A DNA stretch of 64,000 bases from an uncultured Methanosarcinales archaeon (GTDB lineage Archaea > Nanobdellota > Nanobdellia > Woesearchaeales > JACPBV01). Location: positions 6,877 through 70,876 of the forward strand of contig CAZTWQ010000001.1 of the NCBI GenBank assembly GCA_964618315.1. Reading direction: 5' to 3'. Each line of letters begins with the position of its first letter. Position 1 is the stretch's first letter. The notes below the pieces were generated by a model. That model saw nothing but the letters and a program-made list of their open reading frames with translations, was not told where the DNA came from and ran no database searches. Shown one piece after another: positions 1,002 to 41,765 of the stretch. The position numbers and the translations under genes are program-made.

Positions 1002-1023
1002 CTTTATTTTAATCCTAGTCTTT

Positions 1024-1266: not shown

Positions 1267-1338
1267 TTTTACATACCTCCTATTTAGTCTTAGTTTATAT
1301 TCTAGGTTTATATACTTTTCTACTTAGTATTATTAGTC

Positions 1339-1458: not shown

Positions 1459-1483
1459 GTTTATTACCCCTCCTATAATTTGT

Positions 1484-2578: not shown

Positions 2579-2646
2579 TTTAAGTACCTCCTTAAAAGAA
2601 TGATTTAGGTAATAGGGTATTTTTTAAATAGTTTATTATTAATAAT

Positions 2647-3125: not shown

Positions 3126-3157
3126 TATTGTATTCTGTGTTTGTTTGATAATCCATT

Positions 3158-3562
3158 TTATTGACTAATCCATAATCCATGTACATTGCATAATGCTCTT
3201 GCAGTAATCTTAGTGTTTTCAGCTCCTTTTAGTTCCCACTCTGCTTCGGGTTTTTCTCCTGGACTTGGCCTATATCCAGCTAAAACATCCCCATCCCCTA
3301 ATACTTGTATTAGTTCTATATAGTGGTTTTCTTCCATAGGGTGTGGGATAGATCCAACTTTGACTTTGACTTTGTCACCATTTACTTCTACTACAGGAAC
3401 ATGTTTTTCTTTTCCTTCTTCAGTCCCTGTTTTTGGTTCCATTAATTTCATTGGTTGTCCGCAACAAATTAATTCACCGGACCCTGCATCTAAAACTGAA
3501 ACAACATTACCACATAATTCACATTTATAAATTGCATTTTGTTCTGCCATCTTAACCCCCAT
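3158..3562 (-). CDS. dfx: desulfoferrodoxin (2Fe superoxide reductase)
   Basis: N-terminal desulforedoxin motif CELCGN...CCGQPM followed by an SOR domain with KHVPVV and His ligands. Confidence 0.8.
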   Translation of the reverse strand: MGVKMAEQNAIYKCELCGNVVSVLDAGSGELICCGQPMKLMEPKTGTEEGKEKHVPVVEVNGDKVKVKVGSIPHPMEENHYIELIQVLGDGDVLAGYRPSPGEKPEAEWELKGAENTKITARALCNVHGLWISQ

Positions 3563-4046
3563 CCAAACCCCATTCTTCCTCTTCTGAGAAGAAAGAAACT
3601 GGGTCTTTAATATAATCTAATGCTTTTTGTATTAGTTCATAATGGGCATTTTCCTGTTCCATCAAGAAAATGAAAAAGCCCTTTAATTCTTCATTATCTG
3701 TTTTTTCTGATTGTTCCTTATAGAAGTTATAAGCACTTTGTTCCATCTCCATAGCAACTTCATGTGCTTTTATGTCGTTATCACTTAATTCTGTTTTTTC
3801 TTTGAACTCAGATACTGTTGATGTAAAGAATTGTTTAGTATCTGCTAATTTGTCCCCATTTAGTTCTACCGCCCCTTGTTCCATGTATTTTTTAATCTCA
3901 TCTATATGGTTGACTTCTTGTTCTGCTAAATAATTAAATGTCTTTTTTACTATGGGATTTTGTGTTTTTTCTGACGTTTCTTTGTAGATATCGTGACCTT
4001 TTTGTTCGTTATCTAATGCTATTTGCAATGCTTCTTTTAGTTCCAT
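3552..4046 (-). CDS. ferritin-like diiron protein (rubrerythrin family, no rubredoxin domain)
   Basis: Repeated E..E..H motifs (AEQEVNH, MEMEQSAY, MEQENAHYE) in a four-helix-bundle-like 164-aa protein. Confidence 0.6.
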   Translation of the reverse strand: MELKEALQIALDNEQKGHDIYKETSEKTQNPIVKKTFNYLAEQEVNHIDEIKKYMEQGAVELNGDKLADTKQFFTSTVSEFKEKTELSDNDIKAHEVAMEMEQSAYNFYKEQSEKTDNEELKGFFIFLMEQENAHYELIQKALDYIKDPVSFFSEEEEWGLDGG

Positions 4047-4050
4047 TTTA

Positions 4051-4170
4051 TCATACCTCCTTTTTAGTCTCTTCTAGTTCATCATGACATTCGCATGAAC
4101 TGTCCTTGCACCCACATACCTTACAAACTCGCTTATCGCCAAAATCAAAACATTCTTTTTTTGTTTCCAT
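4051..4170 (-). CDS. small Cys-rich peptide (39 aa)
   Basis: Hand-translated METKKECFDFGDKRVCKVCGCKDSSCECHDELEETKKGV; under 60 aa and not in the ORF track. Confidence 0.3.
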   Translation of the reverse strand: METKKECFDFGDKRVCKVCGCKDSSCECHDELEETKKEV

Positions 4171-4172
4171 TT

Positions 4173-4298
4173 TTATTCTATCAATTCCATGGGCTGACCG
4201 CAACAAACTAATTCTCCACCACCTGCTTTAGTTACAGTAACCTCATTTCCACACATGTTACACTTATATTTTTCACCTTCTTTTTTTACAACTACCAT
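4173..4298 (-). CDS. dsr: desulforedoxin (41 aa)
   Basis: Hand-translated [41 protein letters not shown]. The CxxC...CC spacing and the GQPM motif match desulforedoxin and the Dfx N-domain. Confidence 0.6.
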
Positions 4299-4308
4299 AA
4301 AAAACACC

Positions 4309-4809
4309 TCATTCTATCTTTTTGAATTGTTCTTTGTTTGCACTACATACCGGACAAGTATCTGGTGCTTCGCCTTCTACTGTATGGCCGCAGATTTGAC
4401 AAACATAAATGTCTTTTTCTTCTAAATCTTTTTCTTGTTTTACTGATTCTAGTGCTTTTTGATATAATCCAGCATGAGTTTTCTCAACAGTATTAGCTTT
4501 ACTGAAACTGATCTTTGCTGCCTGGTTCCCCTCTGATTCTGCTTCTTCAATCATTTTTGGATACATCTCAGTAAATTCATGAGTTTCTCCGTCTATCGCT
4601 TCCTGCAGGTTTTCTGCAGTTGTTTTAATCCCATCTAAAACCTTTAAATGGTTATGTGCATGAACTGTTTCTGCATCTGCTGCTGCTCTAAATAATTTAG
4701 CTACTTGTTTAAGGTCTTCTTGGTCTGCTTTTTTTGCAAAAGCAAGGTATTTTCTATTTGCCTGACTTTCTCCTGCGAAAGCTGATTTTAGATTATCTTC
4801 TGTAGTCAT
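4309..4809 (-). CDS. rbr: rubrerythrin
   Basis: N-terminal ferritin-like diiron motifs plus a C-terminal rubredoxin-like CQICGH...CPVCS motif. Confidence 0.85.
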
Positions 4810-4863
4810 TTTTTATCATCCCCCTATTAGTTTGTTTGTTTTTATTATTTTTATATTTTTCCA

Positions 4864-5034
4864 TTATTTAAGTTTTAGTATCTTTGGTTTGCAGATTAAT
4901 GTTTTTTCTGTTGTTATTAGACCGCAATCCTGGCAAATGTAGATTTGTTTAGTGTTATTTGTTTTAGGGTTGCATAAGTGGCCTGTGTTTGGTGTTTTGT
5001 AACCACATGTTTTGCATATGTGCTTATTTTCCAT
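4864..5034 (-). CDS. small zinc-ribbon protein (56 aa)
   Basis: Hand-translated MENKHICKTCGYKTPNTGHLCNPKTNNTKQIYICQDCGLITTEKTLICKPKILKLK. Confidence 0.4.
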   Translation of the reverse strand: MENKHICKTCGYKTPNTGHLCNPKTNNTKQIYICQDCGLITTEKTLICKPKILKLK

Positions 5035-5174
5035 TTTACTTATTGATACTAAGGGGATAATAATAAATTAGCCCTTATATATTAAACAAAAAGTTTATAT
5101 ATTAAATAGATATTTACTTTATACTAGTAAATTATTATTTTATGTAATTTCAGAGAGAATTTCAACAACAAAGG

Positions 5175-5864
5175 TTGTTGAAATGGGTTGTTTTAAAGGA
5201 AAATAAGCGAGGTTGGTTTTATATGACACATACTGTAATAGCGGCTGTTGGAGAGAATATGGATTCATTATTTGTTGGAATACGGGAGTTTCCTACTAAA
5301 CGGATTATTTTGATATCTCCGGATGATAACTTAGAATTGGCTGAGAAAACAAAGAAAGATCTTGAAAAGTTTAAGATTCCAGTGGTTATAAAGAAAGTTT
5401 CTGGAAATCCGTGGGAGGCTATGTTTGAGGCTGTAAAGCAGATAAAGGAAGAAGAAGGTGATGATAAACAGCTTATAATAAATGCTGCTTCAGGTGATGC
5501 TGGTGCTAATAAATGCGCCCTTTGTTCTGCTGCATTTGTCAATGGGTTAAAGGCATTTACTGTACATAAAGATAATGTTATGTTAATGCCAATATTGAAG
5601 TTTTCTTATTATAAGATATTAACTGATAAGAAAATGGATATATTGAAGTTTTTGCATAAGAACAAAGATTGCTGTGCTTCTCTGGATGAATTGGGCAAGA
5701 AGTTGAAGATGAGTTTGCCTCTTGTCTCTTATCATATAAACGGCAATCTCAAGTCTGAGGGGCTTAAGGAGATGGGTCTAGTTATGGCTGATGAATGGAA
5801 AGGGAAGATAAAGATTAGTTTGACATTACTTGGTAAGCTGCTTGTTAAAGGGTATGTTAAGTAG
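5175..5864 (+). CDS. putative transcriptional regulator with a Rossmann-like (CARF/Csa3-like) N-domain and a C-terminal winged HTH
   Basis: The N-terminus (VIAAVGENMDSLFVGIREFPTKRIILISPDD) looks like a ligand-binding Rossmann domain; the C-terminus (LKFLHKNKDCCASLDELGKKLKMSLPLVSYHINGNLKSEGL) looks like a wHTH. The real start may be Met16, near position 5220. Confidence 0.4.
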   Translation: MLKWVVLKENKRGWFYMTHTVIAAVGENMDSLFVGIREFPTKRIILISPDDNLELAEKTKKDLEKFKIPVVIKKVSGNPWEAMFEAVKQIKEEEGDDKQLIINAASGDAGANKCALCSAAFVNGLKAFTVHKDNVMLMPILKFSYYKILTDKKMDILKFLHKNKDCCASLDELGKKLKMSLPLVSYHINGNLKSEGLKEMGLVMADEWKGKIKISLTLLGKLLVKGYVK

Positions 5865-5976
5865 GGGTGGATATAGACTTTCCCTGTCTAAATAAGATTA
5901 AATAGTTTTTATTTATTACTCTTAAATAGTTAAGTTTTTATACTAAACAAGTATTTCTTTTGAATTAGAATTTAAG

Positions 5977-7116
5977 ATGAATGAAATAGATGATCAAGTC
6001 AGGATAGATATGGGAGAATTAGGGGCAGCAATAGGAGATAGAGTTTTATCTAGTCGTTGGATTGATAATCCAGACGAAGTAGATGGACATGAAGAATTCT
6101 TAGTTGGACTTGAAAGGAAGTTAGATGCTTTAACTGATGATAGGTTAAGGGGTAATATGGGGTGTGCTTCAAATAAATCTAAAAGGCCATATGATAGATT
6201 GAGAGAAAGGAAAGATCACCATTCTAAACATACTAACTATCCTATCCCTAGTCAAAGATTAACAGACCGTGTTCCTGAACATCTTATCCCTTATATAGGG
6301 GATAGAAGGGGTTTGATTGTTCGATTAACTTTAGTAAATAAGAAACAAGTTTATGCTGCTGAAAGAGATATAAATGCTGGCAGAACTGATGTTTTTGATT
6401 ATAAGTTTACAAAGGGAACTAAGAGAGAAAGGCAAGCCCTTTTAGATGTTCAAAAGGAACGGACTTTATCATATGGGGGGGTCGAGAATAAAAGAGTAGT
6501 TCTTACAAGAGAAGATGCACTACGAGCTATAGAGGGAGTTTATCAAGGATACCACAATCATACTGATTTTATATTTCATCCACAGGCAATAAGATATAAG
6601 AAACACTTAAAAGCTGCACAGGTTGCACGAGAATGTGAGACTATTGATGGAATAGCTGATGATATTTCTAAAGGGATTATTTATGATGAAACTAAACTTG
6701 TTATTTTAAGTACTAAAGAAGCAGTATTGCATGCGCTTGAATATGCTAATAATGATGTATACTTTGATACAGATAAAGTTGAATTCGAAAGTGTGTATTG
6801 GACTGAAGGTTATGTTAATGAGTTAACAACCAAAGTTCATGAACAAATGTGTGAACGTGAAGGAATTGTCGCAGACAATCCTAACGATTCAGAAGAAACC
6901 TCAAGACGTGATGAAAAATCAGATGGGATAAGGTCTGAAGGTTATAAGGGAATGCAAACGCTGAGGGATTGTCCTGCAGATTCCAGTAATGGGATGGATC
7001 ACTTAATGGTCCCTGAAATGCAGCCACATAAACAGAGACTTTTAAGAATGAGGGGGGGATATCATATAACTCTGACTGCGATGAATGGGGGGGATTTTAG
7101 TAGATTGAATCGATAA
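5977..7116 (+). CDS. hypothetical protein (ORFan) with atypical composition
   Basis: 379-aa ORF in a region visibly more GC-rich than its neighbours; rich in Arg, Asp and Gly; no recognisable motif. Confidence 0.5.
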   Translation: MNEIDDQVRIDMGELGAAIGDRVLSSRWIDNPDEVDGHEEFLVGLERKLDALTDDRLRGNMGCASNKSKRPYDRLRERKDHHSKHTNYPIPSQRLTDRVPEHLIPYIGDRRGLIVRLTLVNKKQVYAAERDINAGRTDVFDYKFTKGTKRERQALLDVQKERTLSYGGVENKRVVLTREDALRAIEGVYQGYHNHTDFIFHPQAIRYKKHLKAAQVARECETIDGIADDISKGIIYDETKLVILSTKEAVLHALEYANNDVYFDTDKVEFESVYWTEGYVNELTTKVHEQMCEREGIVADNPNDSEETSRRDEKSDGIRSEGYKGMQTLRDCPADSSNGMDHLMVPEMQPHKQRLLRMRGGYHITLTAMNGGDFSRLNR

Positions 7117-13090: not shown

Positions 13091-14137
13091 TTATCCTGAA
13101 TAATCATATTTATTCATTTTAAATCCAGAATTAACCCTATGTCTTATTGTGCTTGGAGGTATATTAATTAGGGGTGATATTTTATAAGGAGTTAATCCTT
13201 TTTCTGTTAATTCTTTTATTCTTATATTCTGATTATTTATCTTTTCAAATCTTTTTTGATAATGATTTAAAGCATTCGAAAGTTTTTTTCTTTTTTCAGG
13301 ATGAGTAAATCCAATTAGTTTACTATATCTAAGGATTGATTTATTGCGGCCTATTGTGATAGTTGGTTCAGAAATCCTAGATTGAATTCCTAAGTCTTCC
13401 AATAGGGATTTGATGAATAGGAGCTCTTCCTCGCACTTTTGTGATCCACTAACAGAAAACATGCCTTTTTTTAGATTGAAATGGACACAACCTTCATCAT
13501 CAAAGAAAGCCTTTAGATATATTTTTTTGTATTCATCATTAGTTATTATGATAGTTTTATCAAAATTAAGAATATCTAAATGCATTAATTTGGAAGAGTA
13601 AATAAGTTGAGTTACTCCTGAACCTACTTTTGATCTTGTTGGTTTTAATCCATAAACAAAGCCCATATCATTTTCAAATTCACTTAATAATTCTTGATTT
13701 TTGTTTATGTAACTAATTACATAAGAGTTATTTTTACTAACATAACCATCAAATATTGAATGTGCATAGATCCTTACTTTTTCTTTGGTTATTTTATCAA
13801 ATCCTTTTTTAAGGGGTTTAGGATAGATAGGAAATTGAACTTTCCCCTTAATGCAATCTTTTATGAAATTTATAGAATGGCCTGTAATTTTTCTAACTTT
13901 TCTTAGAGATTTAACTTTGTTATAAATCTTACATAGATTGTCAACTTTTTGGTTTTTCTTAATTCCTGCTATTTCACTATTAGATTTTATATGAATTCCA
14001 CCCTTGATTAATCTTTTCTTAATGCCTTCTCTTGAAAGTCCAAACTTTTTTGCTAAATTAGTTAATGTTATTCTTTTATCTAAGACATATATTTTTTCAA
14101 TTTCTTTAATTATTTCTTCTGATATTTTTTTTATCAT
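13091..14137 (-). CDS. LAGLIDADG-type homing-endonuclease-like protein with N- and C-terminal HTH domains
   Basis: Two LAGLIDADG-like motifs (HSIFDGYVS and KAFFDDEGCV), an N-terminal HTH (LTNLAKKFGLSREGIKKRL) and a C-terminal HTH (GLTPYKISPLINIPPSTIRHRV). Confidence 0.6.
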   Translation of the reverse strand: MIKKISEEIIKEIEKIYVLDKRITLTNLAKKFGLSREGIKKRLIKGGIHIKSNSEIAGIKKNQKVDNLCKIYNKVKSLRKVRKITGHSINFIKDCIKGKVQFPIYPKPLKKGFDKITKEKVRIYAHSIFDGYVSKNNSYVISYINKNQELLSEFENDMGFVYGLKPTRSKVGSGVTQLIYSSKLMHLDILNFDKTIIITNDEYKKIYLKAFFDDEGCVHFNLKKGMFSVSGSQKCEEELLFIKSLLEDLGIQSRISEPTITIGRNKSILRYSKLIGFTHPEKRKKLSNALNHYQKRFEKINNQNIRIKELTEKGLTPYKISPLINIPPSTIRHRVNSGFKMNKYDYSG

Positions 14138-23923: not shown

Positions 23924-24364
23924 ATGTTAAGAGGGAGGCATATTTTTGACAAAGGGGCTTCAAAATTACTCATTTCTAGACTTAGAAATATACAAAAAAA
24001 AGAAGGTTACTTATCTGAAGAGAATCTGAAAGGAGTATCAAAAGAAACAAAAATACCTATAACAAGGGTATATGAAGTGGCTACATTCTATTCATTTTTT
24101 AATGTGAAGAAAAAAGGCAAGCATGTAATCAGATTATGTAACTCCCCTGCATGTCTTGTTAATGGTTCTGAGAATATATTAGATATATTTGAGAAATTAT
24201 TAGGTATTAAATTAGGACAGACAACAGAAGATGGGAATTTTACTCTAGAAACCACTTCATGTATAGGGTGCTGTGATGAAAGCCCAGCAGCTTTAGTAGA
24301 TGAAAAAGCACATACTAATCTTAATGAAGATAAAATAAAAGAGATAATCGAAAAATGCAAGTAA
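23924..24364 (+). CDS. NuoE-like [2Fe-2S] subunit of bifurcating [FeFe]-hydrogenase (HydC)
   Basis: NuoE-type Cys pattern CNSPAC...TSCIGCC. Confidence 0.8.
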   Translation: MLRGRHIFDKGASKLLISRLRNIQKKEGYLSEENLKGVSKETKIPITRVYEVATFYSFFNVKKKGKHVIRLCNSPACLVNGSENILDIFEKLLGIKLGQTTEDGNFTLETTSCIGCCDESPAALVDEKAHTNLNEDKIKEIIEKCK

Positions 24365-25458
24365 CTAAAAAAACAGAGTTTAAGGGATTTGAAAAAGCAG
24401 TAAATTTGAAGCCAGAAGAAGTTATACAGGTAGTTAAAAAATCAGGATTAAAAGGGAGGGGGGGAGCAAACTTCTCAACAGGTCTAAAATGGGAATTTAC
24501 AAGAAAAAGTCCAAATCCTACTAAAGTTGTTATATGCAATGCTGATGAAGGGGAGCCAGGCACTTTTAAGGATAAATTAATACTTACAGAGAACCCATCT
24601 ATTGTAATTGAAGGGATAGCGATTGCAGCTTATGCAATTGGAGCTAAATTTGCTTATATCTATTTAAGAGCAGAATACGAGTATTTGAAGGAAAATCTTG
24701 AAAAAGCAATAGAAGAATATAAGGCTGAGTTGGACAAGATAGAATTAAATATTGATATTGTGATGGGTGCTGGAGCTTATATTTGTGGTGATGAAACTGC
24801 AATAATGAATTCTATACAAGAGCTTAGAGGAGAGCCACATGCAAAACCACCATATCCAGTTGAATCAGGGTTATGTAATTATCCAACTACAATAAATAAT
24901 GTTGCTACATTGGCAAATGTTCCCTTGATAATGTTAGATGAATGGGATGATCTAAGATTATATTCATTATCAGGTAATTTAGATAGTCCAGGGGTTTATG
25001 AGATGCCTTTAGGAATAACTACTAAAGAACTTATTGAGAAAGGAACCCCTAAAGAAGAGATAAAAGCATTATTCTTTGGATGTGCAGGTGGTTGTTTACC
25101 TTATGATCCTGAAATGAAACTGGATGTTGAATCAGTAAATGAAAAAGGTGCAATGCTTGGGAGTTGCACTGTTATTGCAATTGGAAAAAGCCAAAGCATA
25201 CCTAAAATCTGTAAGAATATAGCTGAATTTTTTGTTCATGAAAGTTGTGGTAAATGTACTCCTTGTAGGGAAGGTAATTTTAGAGTTTTAGAGATAATCA
25301 ATAAGATTGTTGAAAATAAAGCAGATGAAGATGATTTGAATGCATTGGAGGATCTTGCTATTTTTATCAACAAAACTTCATTATGTGGATTAGGACAAGC
25401 ATCTAACACACACATAAAAACAGCACTAAAATATTTTAGAGAGGAATTTACAAAATGA
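24355..25458 (+). CDS. NuoF-like NADH-binding FMN/[4Fe-4S] subunit (HydB, minimal form)
   Basis: GRGGANFSTGLKW, FMN and NADH motifs and ESCGKCTPCREG; lacks the N-terminal thioredoxin-like and C-terminal ferredoxin domains present in the second copy. Confidence 0.8.
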   Translation: MQVTKKTEFKGFEKAVNLKPEEVIQVVKKSGLKGRGGANFSTGLKWEFTRKSPNPTKVVICNADEGEPGTFKDKLILTENPSIVIEGIAIAAYAIGAKFAYIYLRAEYEYLKENLEKAIEEYKAELDKIELNIDIVMGAGAYICGDETAIMNSIQELRGEPHAKPPYPVESGLCNYPTTINNVATLANVPLIMLDEWDDLRLYSLSGNLDSPGVYEMPLGITTKELIEKGTPKEEIKALFFGCAGGCLPYDPEMKLDVESVNEKGAMLGSCTVIAIGKSQSIPKICKNIAEFFVHESCGKCTPCREGNFRVLEIINKIVENKADEDDLNALEDLAIFINKTSLCGLGQASNTHIKTALKYFREEFTK

Positions 25459-27152
25459 GCCAGATTATGATAAATGGGGTTCAATTTGAGGCAAAAGAAG
25501 GGGAGACTATCCTTGAATTATGCAAAAGAAACAATGTAGAGATACCTCACCTTTGTTACCATCCTGATCTAGAAGCTCAAGCAAGATGTAGGATATGTGT
25601 TGTGAGTGTAAATGGTAAATTAGTCACTTCATGTAATACAAAAGTAATTGATGGTATGAACATAATAACAGAGAATGATGAGATAATAAAAGCAAGGAAA
25701 TTGAATATGGAATTGCTGCTTGCTAACCATGATGCTAAGTTAGAGGATAATGAGTTAGGTAAAGTTGCAAAAAAATTAGGTGTAGATAAAAGCAGGTTTG
25801 ATAAAATTCAAGATAAAACAGTTGATGATAGCAGTGCAGGGATACATCATGATAACAATAAATGCATATTGTGTGGGAGATGCGTACAAAAATGCCAAAC
25901 TATTCAAAGTGTTTTTGCAATAGGATTTGAAAACAGAGGACACTATACTGAAGTAAACCCTTACTTTAATCACGGATTAGGTGATGTTTCATGTGTTCTT
26001 TGCGGTCAATGTACAAATGTCTGCCCTTCTCAGGCATTGATGGAAAAAGATTATACTAAAGAAGTTACAGATGCTATAAATGATTCTGATAAGGTAGTTA
26101 TTGTACAGACAGCACCTTCAATAAGAGGTACACTAGGGGAGACTCAAGGTATGGAGCCAGGAAGTTTAGTAACTGGAAAGATGGTCGCTGCTTTAAGAAA
26201 ATTAGGTTTTGATAAAGTACTAGATACAAACTTTACAGCTGATTTAACAATAGTTGAGGAAGGAAATGAACTTATTCAAAGGGTGAAAAATAAGGGGGTA
26301 CTCCCACAGATAACTTCATGCAGCCCTGGTTGGGTAAAATTTATAGAGCATTTTTATCCTGAACTCCTACCTAATTTAAGTTCATGTAAGAGTCCTCAGC
26401 AAATGTTTGGGACTTTGTTAAAGACATATTATGCTAAAAAGAATAATATTGATCCTTCTAAGATAGTTTCGGTTTCAATAATGCCTTGTATAGCTAAGAA
26501 ATACGAGATGAACAGGCCGGAGATGAAAGATTCTGGTTTTAAAGATGTTGATTATTCCTTAACTACGAGGGAGCTTGGAAGGATGATAAAAGACGCAGGG
26601 ATTGATTTTGCTAATCTAGAAGATGATAAATTCGATCCTATAATGGGTGAGTCAACTGGTGCTGCAGCAATATTTGGAGCTACTGGTGGTGTAATGGAAG
26701 CCGCTTTGCGTACAGCTGTAGATATTTTAGAAGGAAAAGATCTTCAAGAGATAGAATATACTGGAGTTAGAGGATTAAAAGGAATAAAAGAAGCAACAGT
26801 TAAGGTTGCTGGTATTGATGTTAGTGTAGCTGTTGCTCATGGCCTAGGAAATGCAAGAGCACTTATGGAAATGGTCAAGAAATATCCTTCAAAATATCAT
26901 TTTATAGAAATAATGGCATGTCCTGGTGGATGTGTTGGTGGAGGGGGTCAACCAGCCCCTACTAATTCTGAAGTTGTAAAGAAAAGATCAGAAGCACTTT
27001 ATGCGGAAGATAAGGGCTTAACTTATAGAAAATCACATAAGAACCCTGAAATAATCCAGCTTTATGAAGAGTTCTTAAAAGAGTATGGTTCGCATAAAGC
27101 ACATGAATTATTGCATACAAAATACACAGCAATGAATGAATTAGGGGATTAG
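25455..27152 (+). CDS. hydA: [FeFe]-hydrogenase catalytic subunit HydA (copy 1, non-canonical L1 motif)
   Basis: N-terminal 2Fe-2S plus two [4Fe-4S] motifs. H-cluster motif L2 MPCIAKKYE and L3 EIMACPGGCVGGGGQP are present, but L1 reads TSCSPGW instead of the canonical TSCCPxW. Confidence 0.85.
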   Translation: MSQIMINGVQFEAKEGETILELCKRNNVEIPHLCYHPDLEAQARCRICVVSVNGKLVTSCNTKVIDGMNIITENDEIIKARKLNMELLLANHDAKLEDNELGKVAKKLGVDKSRFDKIQDKTVDDSSAGIHHDNNKCILCGRCVQKCQTIQSVFAIGFENRGHYTEVNPYFNHGLGDVSCVLCGQCTNVCPSQALMEKDYTKEVTDAINDSDKVVIVQTAPSIRGTLGETQGMEPGSLVTGKMVAALRKLGFDKVLDTNFTADLTIVEEGNELIQRVKNKGVLPQITSCSPGWVKFIEHFYPELLPNLSSCKSPQQMFGTLLKTYYAKKNNIDPSKIVSVSIMPCIAKKYEMNRPEMKDSGFKDVDYSLTTRELGRMIKDAGIDFANLEDDKFDPIMGESTGAAAIFGATGGVMEAALRTAVDILEGKDLQEIEYTGVRGLKGIKEATVKVAGIDVSVAVAHGLGNARALMEMVKKYPSKYHFIEIMACPGGCVGGGGQPAPTNSEVVKKRSEALYAEDKGLTYRKSHKNPEIIQLYEEFLKEYGSHKAHELLHTKYTAMNELGD

Positions 27153-27296
27153 TGGTAGTTAATTTCTATTTTTATTTTTGTGGTAATTAAACAATATATC
27201 AGTTTCTAATAAGTTATGTGGAGTATAAAATAATAAATTAAATAATGTGGTAATTAAACTAAAATAAAAAGCTTTTTATAAGAGTGGTAATTAAAC
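27152..27296. promoter_or_regulatory. four direct copies of a 13-bp motif GTGGTAATTAAAC (the first copy is degenerate) between the two hydrogenase modules
   Basis: Copies at 27152 (GTGGTAGTTAATT), 27180, 27247 and 27284, ending 7 nt before the ATG of the second hydC. Confidence 0.35.
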
Positions 27297-27302
27297 TATT
27301 TT

Positions 27303-27908
27303 ATGCCTTATCTTAAACAAGTAACAATAAACAATAATGAATACTATTACCTATTCCATACAGTAAGAGTAGGGGATAAATTCAAAAAATTAAGCAAGTA
27401 TGTAGGTAAGAATAAGCCATCGGATAATGAATTAGGTAGATTAAAAAAAGAATTCCTTAAAGAAATAAATAAAGAGCCTGTTGAATTTGAAGAAGAAGTT
27501 CCAAAAGTTAATGTTGTTGAAGAATTGCAAGATCTGCAAGATAAAGAGGGGTATCTATCTAAAGAAAGTATGATCAAAATTTCAAAAGAGAAAGATATAC
27601 CTGGTGTTAAGCTCTATGGTGTTGCAACTTTTTATTCTCAATTTAGACTAAAACAAAAAGCAAAGAATACAATAAGTGTTTGTAGGGGAACTGCATGTCA
27701 TGTTAAGGGTTCTGATTCTTTATTAGAATATCTGGAAGAAATTCTAGAAATAAAATCTGGGCAGACAACAAAAGATGGAAAAATAAACCTGGAGTGTGTT
27801 AATTGTATAGGTGCTTGTGCAAAAGCTCCTGCGATTATGGTTAATGATGAAGTGTATGGTGAATTAACCAAAGAAAAAGTGAAAAAAATAATTGAAGGAC
27901 TAAAATGA
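27303..27908 (+). CDS. NuoE-like [2Fe-2S] subunit (HydC copy 2) with an N-terminal extension
   Basis: CRGTACHVKGS...CVNCIGACAKAP; the roughly 70-aa N-terminal extension is of uncertain reality. Confidence 0.75.
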   Translation: MPYLKQVTINNNEYYYLFHTVRVGDKFKKLSKYVGKNKPSDNELGRLKKEFLKEINKEPVEFEEEVPKVNVVEELQDLQDKEGYLSKESMIKISKEKDIPGVKLYGVATFYSQFRLKQKAKNTISVCRGTACHVKGSDSLLEYLEEILEIKSGQTTKDGKINLECVNCIGACAKAPAIMVNDEVYGELTKEKVKKIIEGLK

Positions 27909-29632
27909 AAATTACAGTTGGATTAGCAACATGTGGAATTTCCGCAGGAGGGATGCCTGTTTTTGAAGCTTTGAAGAATGAGGGTTTTGAAGTAGAAAAA
28001 GTTGGATGTATAGGTATGTGTTATAATGAGCCATTAGTAACTGTCATTGAAGGTGATAAAAGAGAAGTTTATGGTTTGGTTACAAAAGATAATGTGCAAA
28101 AGTTGATTGATTGTCTTAAGAAAGAAGAAGTGTGTAAAGAACTATTCATAACTGATAATATTAATGAACTTGATTTCTATAAGAAACAAAAAAGATTAGT
28201 AATGGAAAATTGTGGTTTGATAAATCCATTAAGTTTGGAACAATACAAAGAAAATGAAGGGTATAAGGGGTTGAAAAAAGCTTTAGATATTGAACCTAAT
28301 CAGGTTATAGAAAATATAAAGAGTTCGGGGTTAAGAGGTAGAGGGGGGGCAGGTTTTCCTGTAGGACTTAAGTGGAGTTTTATTGTAGACAAAAAGGGGA
28401 AGAAATATCTAATCTGTAATGGAGATGAAGGTGATCCTGGAGCATTTATGAATCGTACAATAATGGAATCTGATCCCTTTAAGCTTATAGAAGGTATGAC
28501 AATAGCAGCATATGCCATAGGTTCTGATGAAGGTATCATATATACTAGGGCAGAATATCCTTTGGCAATAAAGACCTTAGAAAAAGCAATTAAAATAGCA
28601 AATGATAATAATCTTCTTGGAGATAATATATTGGGAAAGAAGAATTTTAACTTTAAGTTATATATCAAAAAAGGTGCAGGAGCTTTTGTTTGTGGAGAAG
28701 AAACTGCTTTGATAAATTCAATAGAAGGTAAGAGAGGTATGCCTAGGCCAAGACCACCTTATCCTACTGATTGTGGGTTGTATGGAAAGCCAACTGTAAT
28801 AAACAATGTAGGGACACTCAGCCATATAGCTACAATAATGAAAATAGGTGTTGATGAATATATCAAGATTGGTACTGAGAAAACAAAAGGGACTAAAGTT
28901 ATATGCTTAGCGGGGAAGATAAAAAGAGCAGGAGTTATTGAAGTTCCAATGGGTATTCTGTTAAGAGACATAATATTTGAGATTGGGGGTGGTGTTCCAG
29001 AAGGAACTAAGTTTAAAGCTGTACTATCTGGTGGACCTGCAGGGGGATGTGTACCTGAACAACATTTAGATATCCCGCTAGACTATGAACCATTACAGGA
29101 ACTAGGGGCAATAATGGGTTCAGGAGGCATAGTTGTCATAAACGATAAATCATGCATGGTTGATGTTGCAAGATATTTTATGAGTTTCACACAAGAAGAA
29201 AGCTGCGGCAAATGCACCCCTTGTAGAGAAGGGACAATGCGTTTACTTGAGATGCTAACACAAATAACCAGAGGTGTTGGTGGAAGAGAAGATATCAATA
29301 AAATAAAATTATTGTCTGAATTTGTCAGGGATAATGCATTATGTGGTCTTGGACAGAATGCTCCTAACCCCATACTTTCTACATTAAGGTTTTTTGAAAA
29401 TGAATATATAGATCATCTGGAAAAGAAAAAATGTCCTGCAAAAGCATGTAAAGGTCTTGTAAAATATAGTATAACCGAGAAATGTATTGGTTGTGGGAAC
29501 TGCGCAAGGCATTGCCCTGTTGAGGCTATATCCGGTAACTTAAAAGAGAAACATGTGATTGAACAAAGTAAATGTGTAAAATGTGGGAAGTGTTATGAAG
29601 CATGCGCTTTTGATGCTATTGAGAAAAAATGA
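27905..29632 (+). CDS. NuoF-like subunit (HydB copy 2, full-length, with C-terminal 2x[4Fe-4S] ferredoxin domain)
   Basis: GRGGAGFPVGLKW, ESCGKCTPCREG, and a C-terminal CIGCGNCARHCP...CVKCGKCYEACA. Confidence 0.85.
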   Translation: MKITVGLATCGISAGGMPVFEALKNEGFEVEKVGCIGMCYNEPLVTVIEGDKREVYGLVTKDNVQKLIDCLKKEEVCKELFITDNINELDFYKKQKRLVMENCGLINPLSLEQYKENEGYKGLKKALDIEPNQVIENIKSSGLRGRGGAGFPVGLKWSFIVDKKGKKYLICNGDEGDPGAFMNRTIMESDPFKLIEGMTIAAYAIGSDEGIIYTRAEYPLAIKTLEKAIKIANDNNLLGDNILGKKNFNFKLYIKKGAGAFVCGEETALINSIEGKRGMPRPRPPYPTDCGLYGKPTVINNVGTLSHIATIMKIGVDEYIKIGTEKTKGTKVICLAGKIKRAGVIEVPMGILLRDIIFEIGGGVPEGTKFKAVLSGGPAGGCVPEQHLDIPLDYEPLQELGAIMGSGGIVVINDKSCMVDVARYFMSFTQEESCGKCTPCREGTMRLLEMLTQITRGVGGREDINKIKLLSEFVRDNALCGLGQNAPNPILSTLRFFENEYIDHLEKKKCPAKACKGLVKYSITEKCIGCGNCARHCPVEAISGNLKEKHVIEQSKCVKCGKCYEACAFDAIEKK

Positions 29633-31338
29633 ATAAAATAAAGATTAGGTTGAATAGTGTAGATGTTGAATGTAAAGAAGGGGATATGATTATAGATGTA
29701 GCTAAGAAAAATGGTATTGACATACCCCACTTCTGCCATAATGGCAGGCTAGAAAGGATAGGTGCATGTAGGATATGTGTTGTTGAACAAAAAGGAAAAC
29801 AAAAATTAGTTGCTTCTTGTTGTACTCCGGTTAATGAGGGGATGGAAATAGTTACACACACCCCCAGAGTTTTGGAGGCAAGAAGGATTAATATTGAGCT
29901 TTTGCTTGCAAACCATGATTTGAATTGTACAACCTGCAAGGAAAATCTAATCTGTAAACTACAAAGATATGCTGAAGAGTTAATGGTAAGAGATATAAGG
30001 TTTGAGGGAGAAAAAAGATGGGAGGATGTTGATAATTCAAGTGTTTCTATAAGGAGGGATAATAATAAATGCATACTTTGTGAACAATGTGTTAGGATAT
30101 GTAGCAATATACAGACAGTACATGCTATTGGATTACAGAACAGGGGTTTTAACACAAAGGTTGCACCCCCATTTAATACTCCAATAAACAAGAGTTCTTG
30201 TGTAAAATGCGGTCAGTGTGTTGTTGCTTGTCCAACAGCTGCATTAACTGAAAAAAGTGATATACAACCAGTTATAGATGCACTCAACTCTGATAAATAT
30301 TTAGTTGCACAAACTGCTCCTTCTATCCGTGCTACATTAGGCGAATGTTTTGGGATGCCTGCTGGAACATCTGTAACGGGCAAGATGGTTGCTGCTTTGA
30401 GGAAGATAGGTTTCAAGAAAGTTTTTGATACTGACTTAGCTGCTGATATTTGCATAATAGAAGAAGCAACAGAATTTGTTAAGAGATTTAAAGATAAAAA
30501 AAATTTACCTATGATAACAACTTGTTGTCCTGCATGGATCAAGTTTGGAGAACAGTTCTTTTTTGAGCAGCTTAACCACATGTCTTCATGTAGAAGTCCC
30601 CAAGCAATACTTGCCTCTTTGATCAAAACCTATTTTGCAAAGAAGATGAAAGTAGATCCAAAAGATATTATCTTGGTAGATATTATGCCCTGCACAGCAA
30701 AGAAATTTGAAATATTGAGACCTGAGTTCAAAGGAGAAGCAGATTATGTTTTGACCACAATAGAGCTTGCTAAGCTTATAAAACAACTTGATGTAGATTT
30801 TGTTAATCTTAATGATGAAGATTTTGATAATCCATTGGGTGAAAGCACAGGAGCAGGAGCAATATTTGGCCATACTGGGGGAGTAATGGAAGCTGCTTTG
30901 CGTACTGTAGCTGATTGGGTCAGTGGAAAAAATCTAAAGAAGATAGATTATAAAGATATAAGAAATATGGAAACAATGAAAGAGGCTGAACTTAAGATAG
31001 GTGGTGAAAATGTGAGGATAGCTGTTGTCCATACACTAGGTGAAGCCCGTAAATTGATGAATCAGATCAAGGCAGGGAAGAGCCCATATCATTTTATTGA
31101 GATTATGGCATGTTATGGTGGTTGTATTGGGGGAGGAGGACAACCCCCACCACATAATAAGAAAACCTTAGCTAAAAGGACTAAAGCATTAATTGATGTT
31201 GATGAAAGGAAAAAGATAAGAAAATCCCATAAAAATCAATCTGCACTTAAGATCTACAAAGAATATCTAGGGGAGTTTGGGAGTGAAAGAGCACATAAAC
31301 TGCTGCATACAACTTATTCTAAGAAAGAATATATCTAG
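29629..31338 (+). CDS. hydA: [FeFe]-hydrogenase catalytic subunit HydA (copy 2, canonical)
   Basis: L1 TTCCPAW, L2 MPCTAKKFE and L3 EIMACYGGCIGGGGQP, plus the N-terminal FeS domains. Confidence 0.85.
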   Translation: MNKIKIRLNSVDVECKEGDMIIDVAKKNGIDIPHFCHNGRLERIGACRICVVEQKGKQKLVASCCTPVNEGMEIVTHTPRVLEARRINIELLLANHDLNCTTCKENLICKLQRYAEELMVRDIRFEGEKRWEDVDNSSVSIRRDNNKCILCEQCVRICSNIQTVHAIGLQNRGFNTKVAPPFNTPINKSSCVKCGQCVVACPTAALTEKSDIQPVIDALNSDKYLVAQTAPSIRATLGECFGMPAGTSVTGKMVAALRKIGFKKVFDTDLAADICIIEEATEFVKRFKDKKNLPMITTCCPAWIKFGEQFFFEQLNHMSSCRSPQAILASLIKTYFAKKMKVDPKDIILVDIMPCTAKKFEILRPEFKGEADYVLTTIELAKLIKQLDVDFVNLNDEDFDNPLGESTGAGAIFGHTGGVMEAALRTVADWVSGKNLKKIDYKDIRNMETMKEAELKIGGENVRIAVVHTLGEARKLMNQIKAGKSPYHFIEIMACYGGCIGGGGQPPPHNKKTLAKRTKALIDVDERKKIRKSHKNQSALKIYKEYLGEFGSERAHKLLHTTYSKKEYI

Positions 31339-31539: not shown

Positions 31540-32316
31540 ATGAAAACGCAAAATTTAACTCAAAAATTGAACTTTTATGAATTGATTGGAGTTATTTTGG
31601 GGGATGGATGTATAAAATACTATCCTTCACATAAAGTATATACCCTAGAAATAACTGGAGATGCAAAAGATGATCAAGAATATTTTAGTAAATTATCGAA
31701 GTTAATTACAAGTATAACTAATAAAACTCCAACTGTTAGAATAAGCATAGATAAGAAAAAGCGAGCCTTGAGATTAGAATTACACAGTAAAAAGTTTTTG
31801 GAGTTTTTATTGAACGATGTAGGAATAACTAATAAAAAGAAATCATTCAATGCAGAAATCCCTAAGAAGTACCTAGAGTGGAAATATAGTAAACATATTA
31901 TTAGAGGCATATTTGAAACAGATGGTTCACTTTATTTTTCAAAATCAAAAAAGATTAAATACACTTCTTATCCAAGGATAGAAATTAAGACATCTAGTAA
32001 AAAATTAGCTTTGCAAATATTTGAATTGCTCAAACAAAAAGCTTTTAAAGTACAAAAGAGACCTAGCAAAACAGATAAGACAATTAGAGTCTATCTTAGT
32101 GGATCTGAAATGCTTAATAAATGGTTAAAAGAAATCGGTTTTTCAAGTATGAAAAAATACAGTAAATATTTGTTTTGGAAAAAATTTGGTTATTATATTC
32201 CAAAAACACCTTATAAGAAAAGAATGATTCTCATAAGGGAGCATGGCCAAGTGGCTAAGGCGTCCGCCTGCAGAGCGGATATTCGGGGGTTCAAATCCCT
32301 CTGCTCCCTCTTATAA
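31540..32316 (+). CDS. LAGLIDADG-type homing-endonuclease-like protein (paralog 2); the ORF reads through tRNA-Cys
   Basis: Motifs IGVILGDGCI and IRGIFETDGSL. The last 27 codons or so are encoded by the tRNA-Cys sequence, so the true C-terminus is uncertain. Confidence 0.5.
   Translation: MKTQNLTQKLNFYELIGVILGDGCIKYYPSHKVYTLEITGDAKDDQEYFSKLSKLITSITNKTPTVRISIDKKKRALRLELHSKKFLEFLLNDVGITNKKKSFNAEIPKKYLEWKYSKHIIRGIFETDGSLYFSKSKKIKYTSYPRIEIKTSSKKLALQIFELLKQKAFKVQKRPSKTDKTIRVYLSGSEMLNKWLKEIGFSSMKKYSKYLFWKKFGYYIPKTPYKKRMILIREHGQVAKASACRADIRGFKSLCSLL
32237..32308 (+). tRNA. tRNA-Cys (GCA)
   Basis: Hand-folded cloverleaf: acceptor GGGAGCA/TGCTCCC, anticodon stem TCCGC/GCGGA with loop CTGCAGA, T-loop TTCAAAT; 72 nt with no encoded CCA; immediately upstream of cysS. 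Confidence 0.8.
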
Positions 32317-32348: not shown

Positions 32349-33746
32349 GTGATAAATATGTTAAAACTATACAATACACTAGGCAGAAAGAAAGACGTTT
32401 TTGAGCCTATCAATAAGAAAGAAGTAGGGATGTATAGTTGCGGGCCTACTGTTTATAACTTTGCCCACATAGGTAATTTTAGGGCTTATATAGTTGCAGA
32501 TCTTCTGAAAAAATATCTTAAGTTTAAAGGATTTAATGTAAAGCATGTAATGAATATTACAGATGTTGATGATAAGACAATAAAGGGCTCTATACAAGAG
32601 AAGATTTCTTTGAAAAAGTATACTAAGAAATATACTGATGCATTTCTTAGTGATCTTAAAACATTAAATATCTCAGAAGCAGATATATTCCCAAGGGCAA
32701 CAGATCATATCAATGAGATGGTTGCAATGATTCAGAAGCTTAGCGACAAGGGACTTGCATATAAAGGAGAAGACGGGTCATGGTATTATAGTGTTTCTAA
32801 GTTTAAGAACTATGGAAAGCTTTCAAGACTTAAGTTTGAAGGGTTGAAAGAAGGTGCAAGAGTAAAACAAGATGATTATGATAAAGATCAGGCTCAGGAT
32901 TTTGCTTTGTGGAAAGGTTATTCTAAAGAAGATGGTGATGTTTTTTGGGAAACTTCGCTGGGTAAAGGTCGTCCTGGGTGGCATATTGAATGCAGTGCAA
33001 TGAATACTAAGTATTTAGGTAATGGTTTTGATATACATACTGGTGGAATTGACCTAGTGTTTCCACACCATGAAAATGAGATAGCTCAAGCAGAAGGATG
33101 TACTGAAAGCCCTTATGTAAACTATTGGGTGCATAATGAGCATCTACTTGTTGATGGGAAGAAAATGAGCAAGTCACTAGGTAATTTTTATACTCTTCGT
33201 GATCTGCTTGATAAAGGGTATAGTGCAGTTGCTATAAGATATCTTTTGTTGAGTACGCATTATAGGCAGCAAGCTAATTTTACATTTAAGGCTCTTGAGG
33301 GAGCTAAAGGTGCTGTTGATAAGCTCAATAATTTTATATTTGTCTTAGGGGGCATGGATTGTGATGAAGATGTTGGCAATATAGATGAACTTATCAAAGA
33401 GACCAGAGCTGCTTTTGAGATGAAGATGGACGATGATTTGAATATTTCTGGTGGGTTAGCTGTTATCTTTGACTTCATGAGTGATGTCAACAAGCTTCGC
33501 CTGAGCAAGGACGATGCTTCAAAGGTAATTTCATTTATGAAAGAAGTTGATGCTATATTGGGTGTTATGGATTTTAAAAAGAATGATGAGAATATTCCTA
33601 AAGATATAGAGAGTCTGATCAAGTCGAGAGAAGACGCCAGAAAGAATAAAGATTTTGATAAGGCGGATAAGATAAGGGATGATCTAAAGGAAAAAGGGAT
33701 TGAATTGATAGATACTCCTGAAGGAGTCCGGTGGAAGAAGGTTTAA
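32349..33746 (+). CDS. cysS: cysteinyl-tRNA synthetase
   Basis: HIGN and KMSKS class-I motifs and a CysRS zinc-site context; 465 aa. Confidence 0.9.
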
Positions 33747-40852: not shown

Positions 40853-40998
40853 GGGGCTGTAGCTCAGCCTGGGAGAGCACTAGACTGAAGTTCCTATGAT
40901 CTGCAGAGGCTTTTGCCGATGAAGAGCAGAGATCTAGGTGTCCTGGGAAGTCGCAATACCATGTGCGTCTTGGGAAAATTCAAATTCCGGCAGCCCCA
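40853..40998 (+). tRNA. tRNA-Phe (GAA) with a canonical 41-nt intron at position 37/38 and a predicted second intron of about 31 nt in the T-arm
   Basis: 5' half GGGGCTGTAGCTCAGCCTGGGAGAGCACTAGACTGAAG; exon 2 A-TCTAG-GTGTC-CTGGG; exon 3 TTCAAATTCCGG-CAGCCCC-A. The mature length would be 74 nt with a standard cloverleaf. Confidence 0.7.
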
Positions 40999-41765
40999 CT
41001 CTTTTTTAAACCTTTTATTATTTTAGGGGGTCTTCCTTTTTTACTTGTGATTGTTCCACTTTTTAGATATTCTTCATACTTATTAAGATGTCTTTGGTTT
41101 CTAAAACCAATTAATTTCATCCATAATTGAAGGTTTTGACGACCACTTAATCTTAATCTGCTTTCAATCCAAGTTTTTCCAAACCTTTTATCAAAATTTC
41201 TATCTTCTGGAATAAAGTCAACATTAAAACCTAATTTTTCTAGAAATTTTGAGAATAGTATGATTATTTTTTTATCCACTAAACTTAAAGATATTACTGG
41301 GTAATGTGGATATTTCTTTCTATTTCTATAGAGCATTAAAGAAAAATCTGTATCTGCTAATCCCTTAAGGGTGTGTAGAAGATAATCTTGGTTATTGAGT
41401 ATCCAATTTGGAATTTTAATATTCCTACTATGATGTTTATAGTATCCCATTCCCTTAATGAAATTGAATAATCCTAGTGAACTGAAGTTAATTTCTATTA
41501 AATTCTTATATTTCCTTTGGATAATTTTAACATTTATGTTAAAAAGGTTTTTGATTAAATTTTTTACATAGTGAAAATAATCATAATCTAATCTAGAATC
41601 TCCTGATACAGATATGATATTATATCTAGTATTAAAGCTAACATGCCCATCTCCTGCCAGTATACCAATAAACTCTGCTAATTTTTTAGATGGTCCCTTA
41701 GGTAAAACTAAGCCTCGTTTTCTATCTACATGACTAAATTCTATTTTTGATATATCAAATTCCAT
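40980..41765 (-). CDS. LAGLIDADG-type homing-endonuclease-like protein (paralog 3)
   Basis: Motifs IGILAGDGHVS and LKGLADTDFS; the 3' end overlaps the 3' end of tRNA-Phe on the opposite strand by about 19 nt. Confidence 0.55.
   Translation of the reverse strand: MEFDISKIEFSHVDRKRGLVLPKGPSKKLAEFIGILAGDGHVSFNTRYNIISVSGDSRLDYDYFHYVKNLIKNLFNINVKIIQRKYKNLIEINFSSLGLFNFIKGMGYYKHHSRNIKIPNWILNNQDYLLHTLKGLADTDFSLMLYRNRKKYPHYPVISLSLVDKKIIILFSKFLEKLGFNVDFIPEDRNFDKRFGKTWIESRLRLSGRQNLQLWMKLIGFRNQRHLNKYEEYLKSGTITSKKGRPPKIIKGLKKSGAAGI

Follow-up and report, generated by a model that had tools for sequence, protein, structure and literature searches.

A probable ferredoxin-independent NAD(H)-linked [FeFe]-hydrogenase encoded beside an enzyme of the electron-bifurcating type in a DPANN archaeon

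What use would a small archaeal genome have for two [FeFe]-hydrogenase operons, one directly behind the other? The question is raised by a 64-kb stretch of archaeal metagenomic DNA (64,000 nucleotides [nt] of contig CAZTWQ010000001.1, assembly GCA_964618315.1; referred to below as the window), in which positions 23924-31338 hold six intact plus-strand open reading frames (ORFs) arranged as two translationally coupled hydC-hydB-hydA triplets. According to the Pfam and NCBIfam matches, each triplet consists of a NuoE-like [2Fe-2S] protein, a NuoF-like flavoprotein, and a group A [FeFe]-hydrogenase. The genes inside each triplet overlap by 4 to 10 nt (10 nt between hydC1 and hydB1), and the triplets are 150 nt apart. 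A first reading of this sequence (here, the original prediction) had correctly recognized the two tandem modules and suggested that the first of them, owing to its short HydB and to a serine in the L1 motif of its HydA, had diverged in function, perhaps into a sensory or regulatory hydrogenase. The current analysis points to a different answer: the locus probably encodes a ferredoxin-independent NAD(H)-linked [FeFe]-hydrogenase (module 1) next to an electron-bifurcating one (module 2), and its host is a DPANN archaeon. The features of the locus are as follows (aa, amino acids; FMN, flavin mononucleotide).

23924-27152, plus strand: module 1 (hydC1-hydB1-hydA1)
23924..24364, plus strand: hydC1, NuoE-like thioredoxin-type [2Fe-2S] subunit of 146 aa without an N-terminal extension (PF01257, E = 1.6e-46)
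24355..25458, plus strand: hydB1, minimal NuoF-like diaphorase of 367 aa with an FMN/NAD(H) site and one [4Fe-4S] cluster
25455..27152, plus strand: hydA1, [FeFe]-hydrogenase catalytic subunit of 565 aa, His-ligated [4Fe-4S] cluster lost
25725..25781, plus strand: remnant of the His-ligated [4Fe-4S] site in HydA1 (aa 91-109)
26313..26333, plus strand: L1 motif TSCSPGW of HydA1 (aa 287-293), relay C289 kept, S290 in place of a ligand Cys
27152..27302, plus strand: intergenic region between the modules, with an oligo-T tract, four direct repeats, and a TATA-like box
27303-31338, plus strand: module 2 (hydC2-hydB2-hydA2)
27303..27908, plus strand: hydC2, NuoE-like [2Fe-2S] subunit of 201 aa; PF01257 matches aa 68-201 only
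27905..29632, plus strand: hydB2, full-length diaphorase of the Bfu type, 575 aa
29629..31338, plus strand: hydA2, M3-type [FeFe]-hydrogenase catalytic subunit of 569 aa with every accessory cluster; L1 motif TTCCPAW

The two catalytic subunits share the Pfam domains Fer2_4, two copies of Fer4, Fe_hyd_lg_C, and Fe_hyd_SSU; both pass the NCBIfam models TIGR02512 and NF040763 (827.8 for HydA1 and 795.6 for HydA2, with a cutoff of 765). Their L2 and L3 motifs are intact, and the L1 motifs are those originally read, TSCSPGW in HydA1 and TTCCPAW (aa 297-303) in HydA2. The small subunits also retain their cluster ligands, represented by CNSPAC (aa 72-77) and CIGCC (aa 113-117) in HydC1 and by C127, C132, C168, and C172 in HydC2.

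Module 1 does differ from module 2 in ways that matter for function, as had been proposed, and the differences reside in HydB1 and in a cluster that HydA1 has lost. The only Pfam matches of HydB1 are PF01512 (Complex1_51K) and PF10589 (NADH_4Fe-4S), in agreement with the earlier observation that this protein lacks the thioredoxin-like and ferredoxin domains. Likewise, no N-terminal [2Fe-2S] site, hinge Cys/His site, or C-terminal 2x[4Fe-4S] region was detected in HydB1 by the Pfam searches and the alignment with HydB2 and Thermotoga maritima HydB. Among the five sites that characterize BfuB, it has the NuoF-type [4Fe-4S] alone, with the ligands C298, C301, C304, and C344.

Residues around the flavin tell the same story. 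Bifurcating beta subunits follow the pattern A-M-F-GGPSG and nonbifurcating ones, including the 407-aa Syntrophomonas type, the pattern T-K-Y-variable (Losey 2020, PMC7311640). The features listed there for the nonbifurcating enzymes are Thr or Ser at position 232 of T. maritima HydB, Lys, Ser, or Ala at position 234, Tyr at the FMN site (∼312), absence of GGPSG from 427-431, and a smaller number of Fe-S domains. For the FMN-site residue, the main text of that paper states 367, whereas its supplement states ∼312. The supplement numbering was used here, as “367” is irreconcilable with the T. maritima sequence, which has a Val at that position and the Phe of GAGAF at position 312. An alignment of the T. 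maritima protein (626 aa, from the same supplement) with HydB1 and HydB2 gives the following correspondences.

T. maritima HydB A232: A180 in HydB2, T70 in HydB1
T. maritima HydB M234: M182 in HydB2, K72 in HydB1
T. maritima HydB F312: F261 in HydB2, Y142 in HydB1
T. maritima HydB GGPSG (427-431): GGPAG in HydB2, GC-AG in HydB1

HydB1 displays the nonbifurcating state throughout (T70, K72, Y142, GC-AG, and a single cluster), and it does so as a member of a sizable family. Its 120 best homologs are 361 to 395 aa long, except for two fusions with NuoE; T/K is found in 108 of them and Y in at least 93, and none has GGP[SA]G. The B2-B5 clusters, invariant in true Bfu enzymes, are missing from nonbifurcating homologs, among them S. 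wolfei (Syntrophomonas) HydABC (Schut 2022, PMC9304861), and the same point has been made by Zheng & Huang 2024. Ferredoxin reduction has been placed at the C-terminal B3/B4 domain of HydB, and removal of the N-terminal [2Fe-2S] in the ΔB2 variant decreased bifurcation ∼10-fold (Katsyv et al. 2023). No stand-alone ferredoxin gene was found beside module 1.

HydA1 comprises the N-terminal [2Fe-2S] domain, two [4Fe-4S] clusters, the H-domain, and the small-subunit domain. It has no match to PF10588: all three Cys residues of the HxxxCxxCxxxxxC motif are gone, His92 is kept, and 6 residues are deleted, so that in the HydA1/HydA2 alignment aa 91-109 of HydA1, NHDAKLEDNELGKVAKKLG, stand opposite the HydA2 stretch HDLNCTTCKENLIC. 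This stretch carries the complete motif of the His-ligated cluster, and HydA2 also matches PF10588; thus, the M3-type cluster set is full in HydA2 and lacks the His-ligated site in HydA1. This cluster corresponds to FS4C of CpI and A5 of HydABC. Its loss is common to 30 of the 120 closest homologs of HydA1. When A5 was removed by engineering from the Thermoanaerobacter kivui enzyme, the resulting ΔA5-HydABC was a monomeric protomer with undisturbed activity (Katsyv et al. 2023). By that example, the natural loss of the bridging cluster predicts that HydA1 is part of a single heterotrimer, not that it is dead.

Module 2, by contrast, was called a canonical trimer of the bifurcating type, and this description holds. 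HydB2 contains an N-terminal [2Fe-2S] site (C10/C35/C39) in a thioredoxin-like region, the FMN/NAD(H) site, an SLBB domain, a [4Fe-4S] site (C434-C480), the hinge site H504/C510/C515, and a C-terminal 2x[4Fe-4S] region (C527-C567) recognized by Pfam as two Fer4 motifs. It aligns end to end with the solved BfuB structures 9bov_B, 9n5u_B (NfnB), 8oh5_B, 8a6t_B, and 7q4v_B, with E values from 1e-176 to 1e-207, and its diagnostic residues are A180, M182, F261, and GGPAG. FMN and five cluster or metal sites in BfuB plus one [2Fe-2S] in BfuC, which define the Bfu type, are all present in the sequences of module 2. The 120 best homologs of HydA2 are at least 68% identical to it; those with a source name come from DPANN archaea, and 114 of the 120 combine TTCCPAW with the motif of the His-ligated cluster. 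Judging from this set of sites, module 2 is best read as an electron-bifurcating/confurcating enzyme of the Bfu type.

The locus, as we infer from its cluster content, would specify two distinct [FeFe]-hydrogenases of different lineages, both of them functional, cytoplasmic, and NAD(H)-linked. In module 2, H2 would be coupled to both NAD(H) and ferredoxin through HydB2: the FMN of this subunit would serve NAD(H), and its C-terminal 2x[4Fe-4S] would serve ferredoxin. Module 1 would be a reduced, ferredoxin-independent NAD(H):H+ oxidoreductase, with electrons predicted to move from NADH to FMN, to the [4Fe-4S] of HydB1, to the [2Fe-2S] and two [4Fe-4S] clusters of HydA1, and on to the H-cluster, or along the same route in reverse. 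It would have no ferredoxin branch because HydB1 has no N-terminal [2Fe-2S], hinge site, or C-terminal ferredoxin domain, and it would form a single heterotrimer, not a dimer of trimers, since the His-ligated cluster, the bridge between two protomers, is missing from HydA1. The oligo-T tract behind hydA1, together with the TATA-like box and operator-like repeats that hydC2 has to itself, suggests that the two operons are transcribed separately. In such an arrangement, the NADH-only enzyme could serve at very low H2, and the confurcating enzyme could take over when reduced ferredoxin must push H2 formation.

A number of points weigh against assigning a nonbifurcating enzyme to module 1 and a bifurcating one to module 2. 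We know of no biochemistry for any DPANN enzyme of the module 1 type, and the residues used to tell bifurcating from nonbifurcating proteins were derived from a handful of characterized enzymes. The T/K/Y combination is also the state of NuoF from complex I, which makes it a plesiomorphic signature and not a functional proof. HydB2, for its part, carries GGPAG, one residue off GGPSG. Further, HydB1 is ∼40% identical to bifurcating and nonbifurcating HydB alike; its scores are 284 bits with the predicted nonbifurcating protein of Syntrophothermus, 283 with that of Dehalococcoides, 268 with HydB2, and 265 with T. maritima HydB. It is not demonstrably a member of the S. wolfei clade, and the claim made from its sequence is one of similar function to that type, not of membership. 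A further point concerns maturation: neither the 64-kb window nor the additional flanking sequence that was read encodes HydE, HydF, or HydG, which is usual for archaea, as most of their genomes lack HydEFG (Greening et al. 2024, PMC11216029). The only radical-SAM proteins encoded in the window and the flanks that were read are ThiC and a PRK06267-type protein. The latter (314 aa; 59049-59993, minus strand) scores 334 bits with the NCBIfam model PRK06267, “hypothetical protein” (cutoff, 305), shows weak similarity to HmdB, BioB, and PylB, is not HydE by the models used, and is encoded ∼28 kb from the hydrogenase genes.

One more such point is that subunit pairing appears to be flexible in this lineage. 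In the loci L017 (140-2949), L018 (7619-11707), and L019 (7190-11704), which are syntenic with the window and have the same genes for cysteinyl-tRNA synthetase (CysRS), valyl-tRNA synthetase (ValRS), and replication factor C (RFC) downstream, an A2-type HydA is encoded with a minimal HydB (367-372 aa) and a long HydC; in two of the three, hydC and hydB are separated by an unrelated gene, encoding either GDPD or a 2-hydroxyacid dehydrogenase. Close relatives of HydB2 in the metagenomes always occur in triplets of HydC, full HydB, and A2-type HydA (L020 to L025), and the A2-type HydA of L008 is accompanied by a full HydB, too. Judging from these gene orders, both HydB classes circulate in the lineage, which weakens a one-to-one assignment and would permit cross-assembly between the modules.

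Such swapping lends some weight to the idea that module 1 bifurcates, or at least uses ferredoxin, in spite of its missing HydB Fe-S domains, either through docking of ferredoxin at the N-terminal [2Fe-2S] of HydA1 or by borrowing HydB2 and HydC2 in mixed complexes or supercomplexes. The modules are adjacent and identically oriented, and all DPANN enzymes of this kind have been classed as bifurcating group A3 by both Huang 2021 and Greening 2024. However, loci L007 and L011 contain module 1 with neither a second module nor any full-length HydB within ±10 kb, and translational coupling through overlapping stop and start codons is confined to each module. Moreover, every bifurcating Bfu enzyme characterized by structure or biochemistry has B2-B5, and enzymes without these clusters do not bifurcate. 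We therefore consider a bifurcating module 1 unlikely, if still worth keeping in mind, and retain the ferredoxin-independent enzyme as the preferred reading.

The region between the modules has its own signals. An oligo-T tract directly follows the hydA1 stop codon, and four direct copies of GTGGTARTTAA (at 27152, 27180, 27247, and 27284) precede hydC2. The motif occurs nowhere else in the window, and 0.10 occurrences would be expected in the whole of it. A TATA-like sequence, TTTTTATAAG, occupies positions 27268-27277, ∼30 nt before the ATG of hydC2, with the last repeat copy between the box and the ATG. Arrays of 3 to 6 copies of the same motif, in the same orientation, are found upstream of long hydC genes in four other species, at L008 (13175-13289), L018 (7499-7570), L019 (6945-7198), and L020 (171-246); they are absent from the loci that have module 1 only. 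From their position and recurrence, these repeats are a candidate operator for a regulator.

HydC2 begins with an extension of ∼55 aa (nt 27303-27467) with the pattern MPYLKQVTI..YYYLFHTVR..KFKKLSKYVGK..PS..EL, conserved in L008, L018, and L019. It matched no Pfam family and no fold in the Protein Data Bank (PDB); its AF2 model (pLDDT 80.6) consists of three β-strands and a helix (β3-α). With phmmer, N-terminal extensions of this type were detected in 54 protein clusters that include NuoE-like, Fic, PAS/His-kinase, PheRS-like, and nucleotidyltransferase proteins, among others. It could be imagined that the extension is a nucleic acid-binding domain that reads GTGGTARTTAA, making HydC2 a redox-responsive autoregulator that switches the cell from module 1 to module 2, but we regard this as quite improbable. 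A strict link between the extension and the repeats was also looked for and proved unsupported, as L023 and L092 have the extension without repeats.

The suggestion that module 1 might be sensory drew on the serine in L1. It is well established for this family that C299 of CpI is its proton-relay Cys and that C300 is a ligand of the [4Fe-4S] subcluster of the H-cluster ([4Fe-4S]H). HMMER alignments of HydA1 to the solved structures of CpI and of the T. kivui and Acetobacterium woodii HydA are free of gaps around L1 and pair C289 of HydA1 with CpI C299 and S290 with CpI C300. An alignment shift, which had been named as a result that would overturn the observation, can thus be rejected; the Cys-to-Ser replacement is real. 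The Cys that is lost, though, is a cluster ligand and not one belonging to the wider H-cluster environment or to proton transfer, as had been supposed. The remaining [4Fe-4S]H ligands are C345 in L2 and C489 and C493 in L3, Ser290 being the fourth. Group A enzymes are recognized by four ligands equivalent to CpI C300, C355, C499, and C503 together with the relay Cys: HydA2 has them all, HydA1 has them with Ser290 as the fourth ligand, and both were counted as group A. The entire proton path is kept, with C289 and with E269, E272, R276, and S309 of HydA1 equivalent to CpI E279, E282, R286, and S319; altered proton transfer is not supported.

The same serine is present in an enzyme of known structure. 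The closest solved structure to HydA1 is 7q4v_A (A. woodii HydA1; E = 7e-185), with an identical ITSCSPGW. In that enzyme, Ser301Aw stands in for one Cys ligand of [4Fe-4S]H and ligates the cluster without any spectroscopic effect, and the enzyme is active and bifurcating (Katsyv et al. 2023). TSCSPGW has also been noted in hydrogenases of Melainabacteria (Di Rienzi et al. 2013). The motif is the L1 of 111 of the 120 best homologs of HydA1, and the other 9 have TSCCPGW, in a search that preselects by shared 5-residue words and may slightly favor sequences with TSCSPGW. In a neighbor-joining tree, the Cys forms appear in at least four separate places among the closest relatives of HydA1, indicating that Ser and Cys interchange freely at this position. 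The reading of the serine as the mark of divergence is consequently not supported; by analogy with A. woodii HydA1, it is most simply viewed as functionally neutral, ligating [4Fe-4S]H in place of Cys.

An association of TSCSPGW with one type of partner was considered and rejected: HydA subunits with this motif are found with a full HydB (A. woodii), with a GltD-fused HydB of 1018 aa (Syntrophus sp. and Syntrophorhabdaceae), and with a minimal HydB (the window locus). The Syntrophus sp. and Syntrophorhabdaceae enzymes (L100, 1-6719, and L101, 1-6722) are encoded in HydA-HydC-HydB-HydA clusters, in which a second HydA lies upstream and the HydB is fused with GltD/NfnB-like Fer4_20 and pyridine-nucleotide-disulfide oxidoreductase domains. 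TSCSPGW is a common and structurally documented variant. Whenever Cys is replaced by Ser in L1, it should be checked which of the Cys residues has changed before loss of function or a sensory role is called.

The proposal of a sensory or regulatory (HydS-like) hydrogenase, or of altered proton transfer through the L1 serine, could draw on the deviation of HydA1 from the TSCCPxW consensus and on the location of module 1, immediately ahead of another hydrogenase operon with operator-like repeats. Two traits define putative sensory group C (HydS) hydrogenases: they contain a PAS domain and have lost the relay Cys (PMC8924675). Neither trait is seen in HydA1, which had no PAS match in a search with 17 Pfam families and retains C289 along with the rest of the proton path. 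In addition, the same L1 is found in the active A. woodii enzyme and in most of the homologs, HydA1 is encoded together with a diaphorase, and in L007 and L011 it belongs to the only hydrogenase module. A sensory role for module 1 is therefore very unlikely, and a catalytic NAD(H)-linked enzyme remains the favored reading.

The modules do not look like products of recent duplication, being only 51% (HydA), 39% (HydB), and 45% (HydC) identical to each other. In the neighbor-joining tree, the clade that contains HydA2 has 118 sequences, and all its named members are from DPANN archaea; HydA1 is placed apart from this clade, with other sequences that lack the His-ligated cluster, and it is nearer to the bacterial TSCSPGW enzymes (mean distance, 0.45 versus 0.52). 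Orthologs of module 1 that are 64 to 77% identical retain every remaining ligand. By the Nei-Gojobori method (NG86), nonsynonymous divergence (dN) from the L008 orthologs is 0.20 to 0.23 for module 1 and 0.15 to 0.21 for module 2; synonymous divergence (dS) in the comparisons with L007 and L008 is saturated, so that only dN can be compared. Judged by these sequence comparisons, module 1 is under purifying selection. Strain-level single-nucleotide polymorphisms (0 to 3 in 7.4 kb among seven copies) are uninformative in this respect.

The remaining alternative, that module 1 arose by duplication of module 2 and is now decaying, might find encouragement in its shorter genes and in the absence of three HydB Fe-S domains, one HydA cluster, and one canonical Cys, but it is effectively refuted by three intact and translationally coupled ORFs, by the low identity between the modules, by orthologs that keep all the remaining ligands, by a dN of ∼0.2 at saturated dS that equals that of module 2, by a minimal-HydB family that is large and uniform in length, and by the separate position of HydA1 in the tree. 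A pseudogene or recent-duplicate origin, the second result that was to have undone the original prediction, was accordingly rejected on identity, dN, and the tree.

A contig scan with HydB1 found the C1-B1-A1 arrangement in seven GTDB species. The tandem layout of the window recurs in L008; as the scan yielded 7 loci only, the frequency of tandems is poorly sampled, and they have been seen in the window's own population and L008 only. The exact HydA1 protein is present on 20 metagenome contigs from several samples, with identical gene order. Named close homologs of all hydrogenase subunits come from metagenome-assembled genomes (MAGs) of Nanoarchaeota, Woesearchaeota, or Altiarchaeota, the nearest GTDB locus is from a Nanoarchaeota MAG, and the window encodes an archaeal replication factor C large subunit (NF003229; score, 373 bits; cutoff, 280).

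Some other features of the window deserve mention. Downstream of the hydrogenase genes, a tRNA-Cys(GCA) gene (32237-32310) directly precedes the gene for cysteinyl-tRNA synthetase (32349-33746). It is crossed by a LAGLIDADG-like ORF (31540-32316), the 3′ end of which is probably noncoding. This ORF and two other free-standing ones (13091-14137 and 40980-41765) have weak or faint matches to LAGLIDADG homing endonucleases in Pfam; none of the three is obviously in an intron or intein. At the other end, window positions 1-7000 (L014 15184-19930, reversed) contain an oxidative-stress cluster near FeoAB and an iron-dependent repressor. It consists of three rubrerythrin-like genes and genes for desulfoferrodoxin/neelaredoxin, glutaredoxin, and a thioredoxin-reductase-like protein, a set consistent with a strict anaerobe whose habitat lies close to an oxic-anoxic interface.

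Both modules are of known kinds. Module 1 resembles the nonbifurcating type of S. wolfei, which combines HydA with NuoF-like and NuoE-like subunits, has T/K/Y, and is free of GGPSG; the S. wolfei HydB is listed with “1 x [4Fe4S], FMN, NADH, SLBB” (Losey 2020, PMC7311640), and HydB1 similarly has FMN and one [4Fe-4S]. The NuoE-NuoF fusions seen in 2 of the 120 HydB1 homologs resemble Syntrophus aciditrophicus HydB. On the other hand, HydB1 has 367 aa, compared with 402 to 417 aa in the bacterial nonbifurcating type, and its ∼40% identity to the bacterial representatives tested brings it no nearer to them than to bifurcating HydB. For S. wolfei HydA, 3 x [4Fe4S] are listed, whereas HydA1 lacks the His-ligated [4Fe-4S] and has an archaeal host.

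The closest solved relative of both HydA1 and HydA2 is A. woodii HydABC (PDB 7Q4V/7Q4W/8A5E), with whose HydB residues 28-574 of HydB2 align. That enzyme has a full HydB with five clusters, keeps A5, forms a dimer of trimers, and bifurcates; module 1 lacks, or is predicted to lack, all four of these properties. HydA1 is the natural counterpart of the T. kivui ΔA5-HydABC, from which the bridging cluster was removed by mutagenesis in a full bifurcating background; in HydA1 the loss is natural, involves a 6-residue deletion, and goes with a minimal HydB. The hydrogenosomal Hyd-NuoE-NuoF system of Caecomyces churrovis, an anaerobic fungus, makes H2 directly from NADH without ferredoxin, using a NuoF with nonbifurcating features (mBio 2026). 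Unlike module 1, it is eukaryotic, has a NuoF that originates from mitochondrial complex I, and is not encoded in one operon.

Archaeal [FeFe]-hydrogenases are already known, too, as is the serine variant of L1, and the statement that these enzymes are uncommon in archaea is outdated. Trimeric operons with a nuoF-like gene (4Fe-4S, FMN, SLBB) and a nuoE-like gene have been described in Woesearchaeota and called bifurcating group A3 (Huang 2021, PMC8421398); this nuoF-like gene has exactly the minimal domain content of the HydB1 class. Group A3 HydABC has been reported from at least six DPANN phyla (Greening 2024, PMC11216029) in a paper whose text does not mention “non-bifurcating,” “NADH-dependent,” “serine,” or “tandem.” These two studies dealt with the same organisms and gene families and treated all the enzymes as bifurcating, whereas here two HydB classes are found in one locus. 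What is new is modest: judging from its sequence, a maximally reduced and probably NADH-only module adjoins a Bfu module in a single locus.

One small archaeal genome thus carries a Bfu operon along with a maximally reduced HydCBA that has one HydB cluster, a HydA free of the His-ligated cluster, and a Ser-ligated H-cluster. The minimal HydB is a frequent partner in DPANN archaea, and the chances seem about even that a large share of the DPANN hydrogenases annotated as “group A3, bifurcating” pair with it and hence do not bifurcate. If the published sequence criteria hold, the confurcation assumed for Woesearchaeota and related archaea (H2 from NADH and reduced ferredoxin together) would have to be revised. 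Since H2 can be formed from NADH alone only when its partial pressure is very low, such symbionts would depend on H2-consuming partners. As a monomeric heterotrimer, module 1 would also serve as a compact natural scaffold for NADH-linked H2 catalysis.

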